A stretch of DNA of 56,518 bases from Verrucomicrobiota bacterium. GTDB lineage: Bacteria; Verrucomicrobiota; Verrucomicrobiia; Limisphaerales; RI-55. The notes beneath the pieces were generated by a model. That model did no database searches. It was not told the DNA's origin and was given only the letters and a program-made list of their open reading frames with translations. The stretch covers positions 1-56,518 of the forward strand of contig JBDNGP010000160.1 in the NCBI GenBank assembly GCA_041689265.1, read 5' to 3'. The position numbers were made by a program, and so were the translations under genes. Positions 47,684 to 55,951 of this stretch are shown piece by piece; positions within the stretch are counted from its first letter, which is position 1; every line of letters starts with the position of its first letter.

Positions 47684-48316
47684 ATGCAAGAGCTGCTACA
47701 AGAATCAATCCGCCTGATCAACTTCCCGTTGACCTTGCTCATGGGGTTGGTCCTGCTCTACTGGGCGCTCGCGATGTTCGGTGCGATGGACATGCATTTC
47801 CTGGATTTTGCGCCCGACCTAGATCTGGATATCGACGTTGATATATCACCACCGCAGGGCGTCTTCGGACATTTTTCATCATTCCTGCATCTGGGCGAAG
47901 CGCCGGTGATGGTGATCCTGAGCATGTTGATTACGTTCATGTGGGGGGGCTCGATGGCGCTGAATCATTATTTCAACTCGGGCGATTCGGTTTTGCTCGG
48001 GCTCGTTTACTTGATTCCGAACTTTATTGTCAGCGTGACGTTGACGGGGATTGTCGCGATTCCGGTGAGCGCGTTCTTCAAAAAACTGAACGTTGAAGAG
48101 AAGATCAAGAAGGACGTCATCGGTGATATTTGCGAGGTGACCTCGCGGCAGGTGGATCACAGGTCCGGCCAGGCGGAAGTAACGATGCTGGGTGCTCCGG
48201 TGCTGTTCAATGCCCGCGCAGCCGATGAAAACGAAATTTTGACGAAGGGTCAAAAAGCGGTGGTCGTCCGCAAGAACGACGATGGAACGTACATAATCAA
48301 ATCGTTGGAGGAATAA
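47684..48316 (+). CDS. NfeD/YuaF-like membrane protein with C-terminal OB-fold
   Basis: Several TM helices then a soluble beta-rich C-terminus (VDHRSGQAEVTMLGAPVLFNARA...KGQKAVVVRKNDDGTYIIKSLE). Sits 6 nt upstream of flotillin, as yuaF does with floT. Confidence 0.65.
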   Translation: MQELLQESIRLINFPLTLLMGLVLLYWALAMFGAMDMHFLDFAPDLDLDIDVDISPPQGVFGHFSSFLHLGEAPVMVILSMLITFMWGGSMALNHYFNSGDSVLLGLVYLIPNFIVSVTLTGIVAIPVSAFFKKLNVEEKIKKDVIGDICEVTSRQVDHRSGQAEVTMLGAPVLFNARAADENEILTKGQKAVVVRKNDDGTYIIKSLEE

Positions 48317-48322
48317 ACTACT

Positions 48323-53500: not shown

Positions 53501-55951
53501 GAGAGCTACACGAAGGGCATTCACGACGAGGACGCGGCGGCGATTTTGCGGCAGCTCGGAGCGATGCATCTTGCGCTCGGACTCGCCCGGTATCAGCCCT
53601 CGACGCGTGCGTGTGCGATGGTTTACTGGTCGAAGTTTTGCCCGGAAGAAACCAGGCAACTGTGGGAATCAAAGTTGAAAGGGCTCGGTGCGCGGAATCG
53701 CTTTTTTTCGGCGCGTGCGATCAACCCCGTGTTCATCGAACAGCTGAAGCGATTGATCAGCGCGTTCTGCGTTGAGACCGGCCTTTATCCGGAGGCGTTG
53801 TCCGGGGAGGCAGCTGAGTATCTGGTTCACCAGGTAAGCCAGTCGGACGGATTCACGATCAGTCAGGAGGCGGCGGCGTTGATGGGGGCGTTTCAGGAAC
53901 ACCTTCTCGAACGCCACGCGCAAAACGATTTCGATTCGTCGCGCAAATCGGTCGATGAACATCCCGCCAGCGAACTTGAACTGGTCCGCGACTGGTTGCG
54001 TGGATTTGTTTCGGACGGCGCGCACGCGGCGTCCGTCGACTGTATTGAAGAGGTCGCGGCGCTGATCTTGTGCGACCGGTTTGATCCGAGATTTTTGGTG
54101 GACGAAGCGACGTCGGCCCTGATCAAGGGGTTGCGCGGCAGTCACGGACTGATTCAGGACGGCGCGTTATCTTTGGACTATCTGCAGTTCATGAAACGCC
54201 AGCGCGAGTTCTCACAGGTGACCGTGCCCCGTTTCACCCAGTTTCAAACGTCGAAAAAGAATGTGATTCATCACGCCCGCGAGGAACTGCGTCTGGATGA
54301 ATTTAAACCTCGCGTGCTCACGTCGTTCGTCCGCAACCGGCTGATCGATACCGTTTATTTACCGATGATCGGCGACAATCTGGCGAAACAGATTGGTGCC
54401 GCCGGTGAGAAGAAACGAACCGACCTGATGGGCCTGCTCCTGCTGGTTTCACCGCCCGGCTACGGCAAGACGACGTTGATGGAATACATCGCCAACCGGC
54501 TCGGCGTGGTCTTCATGAAGATCAACGGCCCGGCATTGGGCCACGGCGTGACGTCGCTTGATCCTGCCGAAGCAAAGAACGCGGCCGCACGCGAGGAGAT
54601 CAAGAAGTTGAATCTGGCGTTTGAGATGGGCGACAATGTGATGATCTATCTCGACGACATCCAGCACTGCAATCCCGAGCTGTTGCAGAAGTTTATTTCA
54701 TTGTGCGACGCGCAGCGAAAAATTGAAGGTGTGTTCCGCGGGAAATCGCAGACCTATGATTTACGCGGGCGAAAAGTGATCGTTGTGATGGCGGGCAATC
54801 CTTACACGGAGAGCGGTGAAAAATTCAAGATTCCGGACATGCTGGCCAATCGCGCGGACACCTACAATTTGGGCGAGATTCTTGGCGGACACGAGGAGGC
54901 GTTCAAGATGAGCCACTTGGAAAACGCGGTGACGTCGAATCCGGTGCTTCAACAACTTGCCAGCAAGAGCCAGAAAGACATCCAAAGGTTCATCCGGATT
55001 GCGGAGAAGGGTTCGCGTGATTCAATCGATTTTGAAGCAACTTACGCGGCCGAGGAGGTCGGCGAAATTGTGAACGTGTTAAAAAAACTGTTGCACATCC
55101 GCGACGCCGTGTTGCGGGTCAACCAGCAGTATATTGCGTCAGCCGCGCAATCGGATGATTACCGGACTGAACCGTCGTTCAAACTTCAGGGTTCGTATCG
55201 GAACATGAATCGCATGGCGGAAAAAGTTCTGCCGATCATGAACGACGACGAGGTGAAGGCCCTTGTCATGGATCACTACCAAAACGAGTCCCAGACGTTG
55301 ACGACCGGGGCCGAAGCCAACTTGCTGAAATTCAAGGAACTGCTGGGACTGCAAACGGCCGAGGAAGCGGCGCGTTGGGCCGACATCAAGAAAACCTACA
55401 AGCGCCGCCAACTGATGGGCAACGCCGATGAGAGCGATCCAGTCAGCCGGGTGGTGGCACAATTGTCGATGTTTGGCGAGGGCTTGGGAGATATTCGGGA
55501 GACACTCTCGAAGGCGGTCGAGTCTCGACAGGCCCCGACGATTTCACTGCCGGAAATGAAACCCAACATCAACGTCGACCTCCAGCCACTCGCACAGCAG
55601 GTCTCCTATTTCGCGCACGGCTTGGAAGCGATCAAAGAATTGCTCGCCGACATGAAGTCACGACCTGTGGCCAGCGGAGAGGGAATGGGAACGCCGCAGG
55701 CAAAAGTGATCACGGATCGCATTGATGCGGTAAATTCTGATCTGGATGAGATTCGCGAGCTGATCAAAACCTATCGGCAGGAAGAGAAGGTTTCCCGTGA
55801 GGTTTCTGAAAAAGAGATTGAAACCCGTGCCCTCGATTTCAGCAGTATCTCCGTCACGCAAAGCACTTTGAAACAGATTTACGACCTGATCGACAAGGAC
55901 GAGAAAGCGAATCAGAAGAAGGGCGTGAAGTTACCGAAGAGAAAGGAATAG
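50597..55951 (+). CDS. giant (1784 aa) cytoplasmic protein of unknown N-terminal architecture with C-terminal MoxR/AAA_5-like ATPase domain
   Basis: No signal peptide or TM. The N-terminal ~1300 aa has no family I recognise (mixed beta-rich and helical). C-terminal Walker A LLLLVSPPGYGKTTL, Walker B IYLDDIQHCNPELLQ and sensor-1 VVMAGNPY, in the spacing typical of MoxR/AAA_5 ATPases. Confidence 0.75.
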   Translation: MTDQSQPIDASPEPVVPGSAPVLDSGTYEIIQKRLEEHAGELRDRLQKLDGVRKEVFGSIETVLLHADRITTEHNCVPRDMVPVGKDSFLFGYNVHFGLKTTIRLSDVFAVYHYDNQQFQQSGLDLINHAQFEQDFQSLYKYYKNTVFVKFSYIGPFLFMVFRVGKEVSDVKTFKWAVDGERLVYVDNRSDHEFKYPPQYQFDWKRTHRELHRSGLHPHISIADRVFVECVGGDLTIKIEDNTETGEGIYSEEVQFKDQTLDDAEIFFAICGNLILLKIRPFQEKQFRYFVFNDKIKKMARVDGIAEACVLLPEDQGIIFSNGYYLQTGVLKLFESERTDMMFERLVRSNHGEDFLYVFYNRLAGDYVLMSYNLIAQAVENPIWCNGFSLFENGHLIYFKHQGEPQKHHTLQVWQTPFVVTGLEQVERKDSFLYKIGNRDVVRCMAGCHDILNLLGKDESYVGLYVDIVKLASDIADAYFWVEEAEVFNLKELLNRIHDTAGKAIDEHQKVVRIRRETGAELNRVSGRGRELFSALQREEFKTVDQFVNRLAELRQLRGESISLKELRYIDLAKVAALEETITTQNGELSQACVGFLLKPEALEPYRLRVEEQRTEIDKLEKVTVGRGLQEAVKQTGVDLELLIEITTNLKIDDPTETTRIIDSITVIYTGLNQVKGALKNKIRSLGQVESAAQFGAELKLLSQSVINYLDICDTPAKCEEYLNKVMVQIEELEGRFADFEDYVVQLADKRTEIYEAFEARKLALTESRNRKATALMSSADRILKVIRNRIEGMKSINDINGYMAADLMIEKIRSIIEQLTELDDPVKTDDLQSRLKSIQQDGVRQLKDRLELFADGENIIQLGQHKFLVNTQPLDLTIIHRDDEMHLHLTGTRFFDPIKDETFLQTRPVWKQEIISENETVYRAEYLTYLMLQELAGNGSEQLATFLRSSQEEQLETVRAFMMPRYSESYTKGIHDEDAAAILRQLGAMHLALGLARYQPSTRACAMVYWSKFCPEETRQLWESKLKGLGARNRFFSARAINPVFIEQLKRLISAFCVETGLYPEALSGEAAEYLVHQVSQSDGFTISQEAAALMGAFQEHLLERHAQNDFDSSRKSVDEHPASELELVRDWLRGFVSDGAHAASVDCIEEVAALILCDRFDPRFLVDEATSALIKGLRGSHGLIQDGALSLDYLQFMKRQREFSQVTVPRFTQFQTSKKNVIHHAREELRLDEFKPRVLTSFVRNRLIDTVYLPMIGDNLAKQIGAAGEKKRTDLMGLLLLVSPPGYGKTTLMEYIANRLGVVFMKINGPALGHGVTSLDPAEAKNAAAREEIKKLNLAFEMGDNVMIYLDDIQHCNPELLQKFISLCDAQRKIEGVFRGKSQTYDLRGRKVIVVMAGNPYTESGEKFKIPDMLANRADTYNLGEILGGHEEAFKMSHLENAVTSNPVLQQLASKSQKDIQRFIRIAEKGSRDSIDFEATYAAEEVGEIVNVLKKLLHIRDAVLRVNQQYIASAAQSDDYRTEPSFKLQGSYRNMNRMAEKVLPIMNDDEVKALVMDHYQNESQTLTTGAEANLLKFKELLGLQTAEEAARWADIKKTYKRRQLMGNADESDPVSRVVAQLSMFGEGLGDIRETLSKAVESRQAPTISLPEMKPNINVDLQPLAQQVSYFAHGLEAIKELLADMKSRPVASGEGMGTPQAKVITDRIDAVNSDLDEIRELIKTYRQEEKVSREVSEKEIETRALDFSSISVTQSTLKQIYDLIDKDEKANQKKGVKLPKRKE

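Follow-up and report, generated by a model that had tools for sequence, protein, structure and literature searches.

A conserved yqiJ–flotillin–giant AAA+ protein operon in a Verrucomicrobiota bacterium and its possible role beside flotillin and PspA

We analysed a stretch of 56,518 nucleotides (nt) from a Verrucomicrobiota bacterium (contig JBDNGP010000160.1 of assembly GCA_041689265.1), hereafter called the window. Three genes lie one behind the other on its plus strand: a yqiJ/nfeD-like gene, a gene for a YqiK-type flotillin of the SPFH family, and a gene for a giant protein of 1,784 amino acids (aa) that has a single AAA+ module (Table 1). Comparison with other genomes showed that the three genes form one conserved system, a genuine three-gene cassette. 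Calling of open reading frames (ORFs) found them, all on the same strand and with spacings of 6 and 213 nt, exactly where a sequence-only reading of the window, made by a model that ran no database searches, had placed them. The window is a metagenome contig of the Joint Genome Institute (JGI; sample 3300007522), and among the matches listed its nearest genomic relatives were metagenome-assembled genomes of Verrucomicrobiales. The JGI gene call opens the flotillin at 48353, not at 48323, that is, 10 codons later and giving 676 aa; the 6-nt spacing between yqiJ and the flotillin gene holds only with the upstream ATG (48323).

The first two genes are a real NfeD–flotillin pair, as had been read from the sequence, and the pair is of the yqiJ-yqiK type. 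The 210-aa protein matches the Pfam model YqiJ_N with an expect value (E) of 7.7e-6 and 26.5 bits, above the curated cutoff of 23, and BLASTP aligns it over its full length, residues 13–207, with Escherichia coli YqiJ (E 6e-8). It has three hydrophobic segments. PF01957 and PF07290, the models for the oligonucleotide/oligosaccharide-binding (OB) fold of NfeD and YqiJ, do not match it; the BLASTP alignment runs through the OB region of YqiJ (139–198). The 686-aa flotillin shows 30% identity over 478 aa with E. coli YqiK (BLASTP, E 4e-39), starting at the transmembrane (TM) segment. It aligns to residues 7–450 of YqiK, which comprise the TM, Band_7 and helical regions, and hhalign gives a probability of 99.9 for an alignment that stops at YqiK residue 423. 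E. coli YqiK (553 aa) carries Band_7 (39–192) and Flot (406–530) in Pfam. For the window flotillin no Pfam match, Band_7 and Flot included, was obtained even at E ≤ 10, and a search of the PDB with the single sequence gave no match; the family profile matched QmcA alone (E 0.025). Most of the giant-linked flotillins (~690 aa) fall below the Pfam threshold for Band_7; the orthologue on plasmid pQBR103 matches it at 9e-11. Source databases name the homologues flotillin or YqiK.

The E. coli yqiJ-yqiK and Bacillus subtilis yuaF-floT pairs share with the window the same gene order and tight coupling, and the first two window genes are homologous to those for YqiJ and YqiK. In E. coli, however, no giant gene follows yqiK. 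The flotillins also differ at their C-terminal ends: YqiK has the Flot domain, whereas PF15975 (Flot) is absent from the window flotillin and from all 120 homologues (0/120), which instead have another conserved region. These C-terminal ~200 residues are strongly conserved inside the giant-linked subfamily. Such a conserved, non-Flot region in giant-linked flotillins suggests a specialised interface, and residues 481–686 are a candidate docking site for the giant. An invariant FFNG...F motif is found at residues 613–621 of this region. Directly behind the N-terminal TM segment of the flotillin there is an Arg-Lys pair. By the positive-inside rule, which was used to orient the segment, the bulk of the flotillin would therefore be cytoplasmic, in the same compartment as the giant, which has no TM segment.

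Gene order across genomes and the link to PspA

The three window proteins were located by tblastn in each of 80 genome loci from Verrucomicrobiota, Planctomycetota, Bacteroidota, Desulfobacterota, Kiritimatiellota, Omnitrophota and Clostridia (at least seven phyla). In 61 of the 65 loci that have at least 2.7 kb of upstream DNA, the gene immediately before the giant, on the same strand, encodes a flotillin, and a truncated flotillin was seen in 9 of 11 loci with 0.6–2.7 kb. The median distance from flotillin to giant in the other loci is 238 nt. YqiJ was detected upstream of flotillin in 50 of the 61 loci with enough DNA; in the remaining loci it is probably too divergent for tblastn. When the comparison was made in the reciprocal direction, a DUF3686 giant followed the flotillin in all four close flotillin homologues (4/4) that were picked from the flotillin search on contigs new to the analysis, and the giant was split by frameshifts in two long-read assemblies among these four. 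The sequence-only reading had asked whether the giant recurs beside nfeD–flotillin pairs in other genomes, and it does: since flotillin stands upstream in 61 of 65 loci, a giant that is never syntenic with flotillin is not what the genomes contain.

These data also bear on the idea that the adjacency is coincidental and that the giant is functionally unrelated to the nfeD–flotillin pair. The 213-nt gap with its weak terminator-like hairpin between the two genes would fit such an idea, but order and strand are kept in 61 of 65 loci, which come from at least seven phyla, and in every locus of the reciprocal check. This refutes the idea, and we give it practically no weight.

Genes of the phage-shock protein PspA repeatedly accompany the cassette. 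Upstream of it, ten Bacteroidota loci have a PspA/IM30 gene (PF04012, 6e-41), nine of them together with a CesT_Tir_1/YbjN-like gene (PF22550, 3e-58) and nine with a divergent helix-turn-helix (HTH) regulator. In an eleventh locus (L034) the PspA gene follows downstream of the giant but is encoded on the opposite strand, and on an unassigned metagenome contig (L086) a PspA gene precedes yqiJ. The cassette is joined to a PspA block also on the Pseudomonas fluorescens SBW25 megaplasmid pQBR103 (L088, 85.4–97.6 kb), where the order is PspA, rhomboid, DUF2491, DUF350, DUF1190, glutathionylspermidine synthase, a hypothetical protein, the SPFH protein and the giant. As a well-studied megaplasmid, pQBR103 is a tractable experimental system for the cassette.

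An operon of this type has been described before, in a comparative genomics study of the phage-shock membrane-stress network (Ravi et al. 2024, mSystems 9:e00847-23, PMC11237479). That study reported a CesT/Tir-PspA dyad in operons with three more genes, including a three-TM protein typified by YqiJ/YuaF, and also mentioned 'abbreviated operons' with only the YqiJ-type, flotillin and giant genes. In silico and in a few sentences, it treated the operon as partnering the PspA envelope-stress system. The window agrees with that operon in the YqiJ-type three-TM protein, the flotillin with TM, SPFH and coiled-coil parts, the giant with propeller-like, helical and AAA+ parts, and the gene order. It differs from the long form in having neither the CesT/Tir-PspA dyad nor the divergent HTH regulator: tblastn of the Bacteroidota CesT and HTH proteins gave no match in the window, and the upstream ORFs are unrelated. 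Because the dyad is missing, the window corresponds to the abbreviated form named in PMC11237479. The Bacteroidota loci studied here reproduce the long form, and their gene string is the same as that given in Table S3 of that paper for Dokdonia donghaensis (ANH61663.1). Thus, the arrangement is not undescribed, as the sequence-only reading had supposed. Since it was reported in silico in 2024, the window locus is not new and we make no claim of discovery; it is a further instance of that operon type, with a giant from a catalogued DUF family. Synteny statistics, structure models, an AAA+ clade assignment, the Walker B observation described below and experiments are not part of the 2024 paper.

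Clustering of neighbouring ORFs found only flotillin and YqiJ to be conserved as neighbours across loci, apart from the lineage-restricted PspA genes; downstream of the giant no gene is conserved, and the flanks differ everywhere. In Bacteroidota, small, variable and non-conserved ORFs (80–250 aa) separate the flotillin gene from the giant gene; in Pontibacter coccineus (L027:8609–9695) they encode a DMP19-like protein (PF14300, 7e-28) and a DUF3997 protein. In two of the four loci where flotillin is not adjacent to the giant, the upstream genes are unusual: they encode a STAND/NACHT NTPase and a TPR protein in one locus (L022, 4390–7035), and a Uma2-family endonuclease and a TonB_C protein in another (L069, 5921–6508). 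A tblastn search of plasmid and chromid records added Proteus, Pseudomonas, Halomonas, Vibrio, Photobacterium, Streptomyces, Nonomuraea, Deinococcus and Hymenobacter, and thus extended the homologues to Proteobacteria, Actinobacteria and Deinococcus.

Several of these features would suit an anti-phage or abortive-infection system with flotillin and YqiJ as membrane effector and the giant as sensor ATPase. The cassette is self-contained with variable flanks, it is found on some megaplasmids, one of the small Bacteroidota ORFs is DMP19-like, and the STAND NTPase and the Uma2 endonuclease occur as isolated neighbours. However, PADLOC gave marginal, P-loop-level matches for the giant (E 0.002–0.008) and none for the other two proteins, no homologue was found in the phage genome collection, most of the flanking genes have ordinary functions in metabolism or transport, and the recurrent partner is PspA and not a defence gene. 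Across phyla the identity is 47–56% for the giant and 50–60% for the flotillin, unlike fast-evolving defence genes, and this argues against arms-race evolution. The 'defence-like' role that had been suggested for the giant is therefore unsupported, and a defence function is improbable.

Architecture of the giant protein and its AAA+ module

The N-terminal region of the giant had been said to match no family. This was wrong: Pfam finds DUF3686 (PF12458) at residues 41–480 (E 2e-179) and DUF7902 at residues 601–684 (E 6e-23), and around residues 1281–1406 it finds AAA (2.9e-8) and AAA_5 (1.2e-6). More than 5,605 proteins are homologous to the giant at E ≤ 1e-10, the N-terminal domain is present in 710 clusters at 50% identity, and at least 594 species-level genome matches were confirmed by two exact peptide patterns. 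Full-length members of the family have 1,500–2,040 aa; some giants carry extra repeats ahead of DUF3686, either ankyrin (P0040) or HEAT (P0101). The absence of a signal peptide and of TM segments, already noted from the sequence, was confirmed: the giant is free of hydrophobic segments, and its 19-residue Kyte-Doolittle mean peaks at 1.48.

PF12458 bears the title 'ATPase involved in DNA repair', and at NCBI the homologues go under 'DNA repair ATPase', whereas JGI uses 'MoxR-like ATPase'. Apart from this inherited name, a repair function could appeal to weak matches with RuvB at the level of the P-loop; these span ~45–60 residues around the P-loop only. Domain searches of the giant detected neither a nuclease nor a helicase nor a DNA-binding domain, its conserved neighbours are membrane proteins with no repair gene among them, and the literature search found no paper that ties the family to repair. 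We therefore rejected the function read from the name, and consider it very improbable that the giant is a DNA-repair ATPase.

AlphaFold models were built from a 71-sequence alignment for residues 1–900 (mean predicted local distance difference test score, pLDDT, 84.5) and 861–1660 (mean pLDDT 87.3). They show a long N-terminal helix, a beta-propeller-like domain of ~27 strands within DUF3686, an all-helical arm of ~420 residues made of spectrin-like bundles, a middle region, and the AAA+ module with its helical lid. The middle region (860–1231) has no Pfam or PDB sequence match. The consensus of the charged tail (1621–1784) is mostly 'x', and the pLDDT falls at the end of the second model. 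Searches of the PDB with the giant sequence gave P-loop-level matches only. With Foldseek, the part composed of the propeller and the helical leg matched clathrin heavy chain; the global template modelling scores (TM-scores) are very low (0.13), so the likeness is at the domain level only.

The motifs named by the sequence-only reading are all present in the AAA+ module: SPPGYGKTT (Walker A), IYLDDIQ (Walker B) and VVMAGNPY (sensor 1). Their conservation was counted in 183 full-length family members, in some of which the N-terminal domain is only ~30% identical to that of the window giant. Walker A is SPPGYGKTT in 181 of the 183; GNPY of sensor 1 and the L-x-N-R motif are likewise each found in 181. 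For Walker B the sequence D-D-(I/V)-Q is seen in 182, with the usual catalytic Glu replaced by Asp. In the AlphaFold model a beta-hairpin (1375–1389) lies between the helix that follows Walker B and the strand of sensor 1; it is the pre-sensor-1 insert. According to the established AAA+ classification, this insert rules out the classical clade of Vps4, FtsH and p97. The closest structural neighbours of the module are the MoxR-type remodellers NorQ and CbbQ, with a small lead over ClpA and ClpB, and AAA_3, the MoxR-specific Pfam model, does not match the giant. The module had been called an unmistakable MoxR/AAA_5-type ATPase; 'MoxR/AAA_5-like' describes it fairly, but 'unmistakable' goes too far. 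Compared with the MoxR family (NorQ, CbbQ, RavA) and with AAA_5 proteins such as midasin and dynein, the giant is peculiar in that a single AAA+ module ends an N-terminal extension of 1,240 residues.

Since the Asp-Asp Walker B is family-wide, slow hydrolysis or switch-like behaviour is possible. Walker B motifs of this kind are found where an AAA+ domain binds ATP but is a poor ATPase, for example in NSF D2. The giant might then be a nucleotide-gated structural scaffold or tether, a coat-like or spectrin-like lattice in the cytoplasm that links flotillin domains to other cell structures, its AAA+ module being an ATP-dependent oligomerisation switch only. The long spectrin-like arm and the clathrin-like order of propeller and helical leg would suit a scaffold as well. 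On the other hand, the clathrin likeness is confined to domains, the conservation of sensor 1 and of the putative arginine finger equals that of Walker A, as is typical of an active ATPase, and the nearest structural neighbours, NorQ and CbbQ, are active remodellers. For these reasons we regard a pure scaffold as rather unlikely.

The intergenic gap, repeats and flanking ORFs

The positions of the features are collected in Table 1.

Table 1. Features of the yqiJ–flotillin–giant locus in the window (positions in nt of the window, residues of the respective protein)
Feature	Residues	Position	Strand	Remarks
yqiJ/nfeD-like gene		47684..48316	+	210-aa inner-membrane protein, three predicted TM segments, soluble C-terminal part
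Flotillin gene		48323..50383	+	YqiK-type SPFH protein, 686 aa
Flotillin N-terminal TM segment	1–37	48323–48433		TM prediction
Flotillin SPFH region	~35–200	48425–48922		
Flotillin long helical region	~201–480			Glu/Ala/Lys-rich
Flotillin conserved C-terminal region	481–686	49763–50380		~200 aa, not Pfam Flot
Intergenic gap, flotillin/giant		50384..50596	.	213 nt, GC-rich hairpins
Acido-Lenti-1 (RF01687), sub-threshold match		50460..50513	-	Rfam, cmscan; two hairpins, full model
Giant gene		50597..55951	+	Predicted cytoplasmic protein of the DUF3686/DUF7902/AAA+ family, 1784 aa; database name 'DNA repair ATPase'
Long helix of giant	25–57			AlphaFold model
Beta-propeller-like domain	63–415	50783..51841	+	~27 strands; within DUF3686 (50717–52036)
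All-helical arm	432–853	51890..53155	+	Spectrin-like helical bundles, ~420 residues; contains DUF7902 (52397–52648)
Middle region	860–1231	53174..54289	+	Small beta unit, helical domain of ~240 aa, long connecting helix; AlphaFold
AAA+ module	~1240–1450 (alpha/beta core), to ~1620 (helical lid)	54314..55456	+	
Walker A, SPPGYGKTT	1285–1293	54449–54475	+	
Walker B, IYLDDIQ	1350–1356	54644–54664	+	Asp-Asp at residues 1353–1354 (54653–54658)
Beta-hairpin before sensor 1	1375–1389	54719–54763	+	
Sensor 1, in VVMAGNPY	1396–1403	54782–54805	+	
Conserved LANRAD arginine		54842–54859	+	
Charged helical C-terminal tail	1621–1784	55457..55948	+	Poorly conserved
30-nt inverted repeat		56020–56049 and 56154–56183		97% complementary, 104 nt apart; directly downstream of giant

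The gap between flotillin and giant had been described as packed with GC hairpins. Hairpins are present, but this was overstated: the gap folds at -78.3 kcal/mol with a z of -1.84, which is modestly better than shuffled sequence. There is one weak terminator-like hairpin at 50461–50473. On the strand opposite to the genes, the Acido-Lenti-1 match scores 27.8 bits, below the gathering score of 37, with E 0.0044 when the region is searched and 0.026 over the whole window. The gap was considered as the site of a regulatory RNA, which was rejected, this sub-threshold, opposite-strand match and the z-score being the sole evidence.

The pattern of the 30-nt inverted repeat occurs at its two sites only, where none (0) is expected by chance. 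Its hairpin core, CCYGGGGC..GCCCCRGG, has three copies in the 56.5-kb window, one in the gap (50487–50513) and one in each arm of the inverted repeat. Structured repeats on both sides of the giant gene had been proposed, and the core is indeed found both in the gap and downstream, but as three copies in all. The inverted repeat is probably a small repeat element and may resemble a miniature inverted-repeat transposable element (MITE) or a repetitive extragenic palindromic (REP) element; its membership of the system is at most putative.

Upstream of the cassette, at 46104–46808 on the plus strand, a TAXI-family TRAP solute-binding ORF of 234 aa spans positions 1–211 of the 289 positions of the NMT1_3 profile; it may be a truncated gene or the remnant of a pseudogene. 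Between it and yqiJ lies a 109-aa ORF (46997–47326, plus strand) that JGI calls as a gene. This ORF matches no family. None of the 81 other loci has a counterpart, and for that reason it was rejected as a member of the operon. At the very end of the window (56485–56518) there is a near-perfect palindrome of 17+17 nt (TTCCCCAACCGCCCCCG / CGGGGGCGGTTCGGGAA).

A possible ATP-driven partner of flotillin and PspA

The most plausible reading of the giant is a flotillin-scaffolded remodelling ATPase, a possibility that the sequence-only reading had raised. We put the probability that the operon encodes a membrane-associated machine, in which the giant is the ATP-driven partner of the flotillin/PspA membrane-stress machinery, slightly above one half (about 0.55). 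YqiJ and the N-terminally anchored flotillin would together form an SPFH assembly at the inner membrane, on its cytoplasmic side, and the giant would oligomerise via its MoxR-like AAA+ module. Each subunit of the giant would then reach out with an arm of ~1,200 residues, composed of helical bundles and a propeller-like tip. These arms may engage the flotillin assembly through its specialised C-terminal region, the ESCRT-III-type polymers of PspA where PspA is present, or both. Binding or hydrolysis of ATP would drive or gate the assembly, disassembly or remodelling of the scaffold in envelope stress. What the data show is the conservation of the operon, of the domain architecture and of the AAA+ motifs, the homology of the first two proteins to YqiJ and YqiK, and the recurrence of PspA in the cassette; the topology, the oligomerisation, the direct contact between giant and flotillin and the remodelling activity are what we infer. 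Such a mechanism agrees with the role put forward in silico by Ravi et al. (2024).

Known systems offer two analogies. HflK/C and FtsH are likewise an SPFH scaffold that is genetically paired with an AAA+ ATPase, which suggests energy-dependent work on or inside an SPFH assembly; other pairings of an SPFH cage with an AAA+ protein are of this kind too. FtsH is a membrane-anchored AAA+ protease of the classical clade, and HflK/C face the periplasm. The giant, in contrast, is a soluble protein that lacks a protease domain and falls into the AAA+ group with the pre-sensor-1 hairpin. The other analogy is that of Vps4 with ESCRT-III, which has been proposed for the AAA+ partners of PspA and its PspA/Vipp1 polymers (PMC11237479); PspA is part of the cassette in several lineages.

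Several observations weigh against an ATP-driven partner of flotillin and PspA. With the Asp-Asp Walker B of 182 of the 183 family members, the module may be a slow ATPase that serves as a nucleotide-gated switch and not as a motor. MoxR ATPases normally act with a partner that has a VWA domain, but no VWA gene is found among the conserved neighbours of the cassette and no VWA domain in the giant; together with the Asp-Asp in place of Asp-Glu in Walker B and the unmatched AAA_3 model, this sets the giant apart from the MoxR family. Four loci have a giant without an adjacent flotillin (L020, L022, L037 and L069), and, given the 213-nt gap with its weak terminator-like hairpin, co-transcription of the giant with flotillin in the window is putative. 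A tblastn search with Bacteroidota PspA as query found no PspA in the 56-kb window. The literature search turned up no experimental study of any family member, and neither Hinderhofer (2009) nor a 2026 paper on Pseudomonas aeruginosa SPFH proteins mentions the giant.

A more specific form of the mechanism is possible but doubtful. The giant might form a hexameric MoxR-like ring whose six propeller-tipped, spectrin-like arms rest on the C-terminal region of flotillin and assemble, open or strip the flotillin cage and PspA polymers. If this were true, the giant would serve SPFH scaffolds as Vps4 serves ESCRT-III or as uncoating ATPases serve clathrin. The operon would then represent a previously unrecognised class of membrane machine and would provide a defined ATP-controlled mechanism for bacterial flotillins.

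The function of bacterial flotillins and the assembly and disassembly of SPFH cages are still debated. With a flotillin and its NfeD/YqiJ partner joined to an ATPase of ~1,800 residues, the operon is a natural experimental handle on this question. Beyond the 2024 paper, this study adds the synteny statistics, the domain map drawn from confident models, the assignment to a MoxR-like clade, the family-wide Asp-Asp Walker B, the non-Flot C-terminal region of giant-linked flotillins and a list of carriers that can be cultured (Dokdonia donghaensis, Hymenobacter, Pontibacter, Roseibacillus, Rhodopirellula baltica, Symmachiella dynata, Proteus mirabilis and P. fluorescens SBW25 with pQBR103), and it shows that the name 'DNA repair ATPase' is without support. 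These additions could guide the design of the first experiments. The cassette is widespread, strongly conserved and repeatedly joined to PspA, and could supply bacterial flotillins with an ATP-dependent mechanism.

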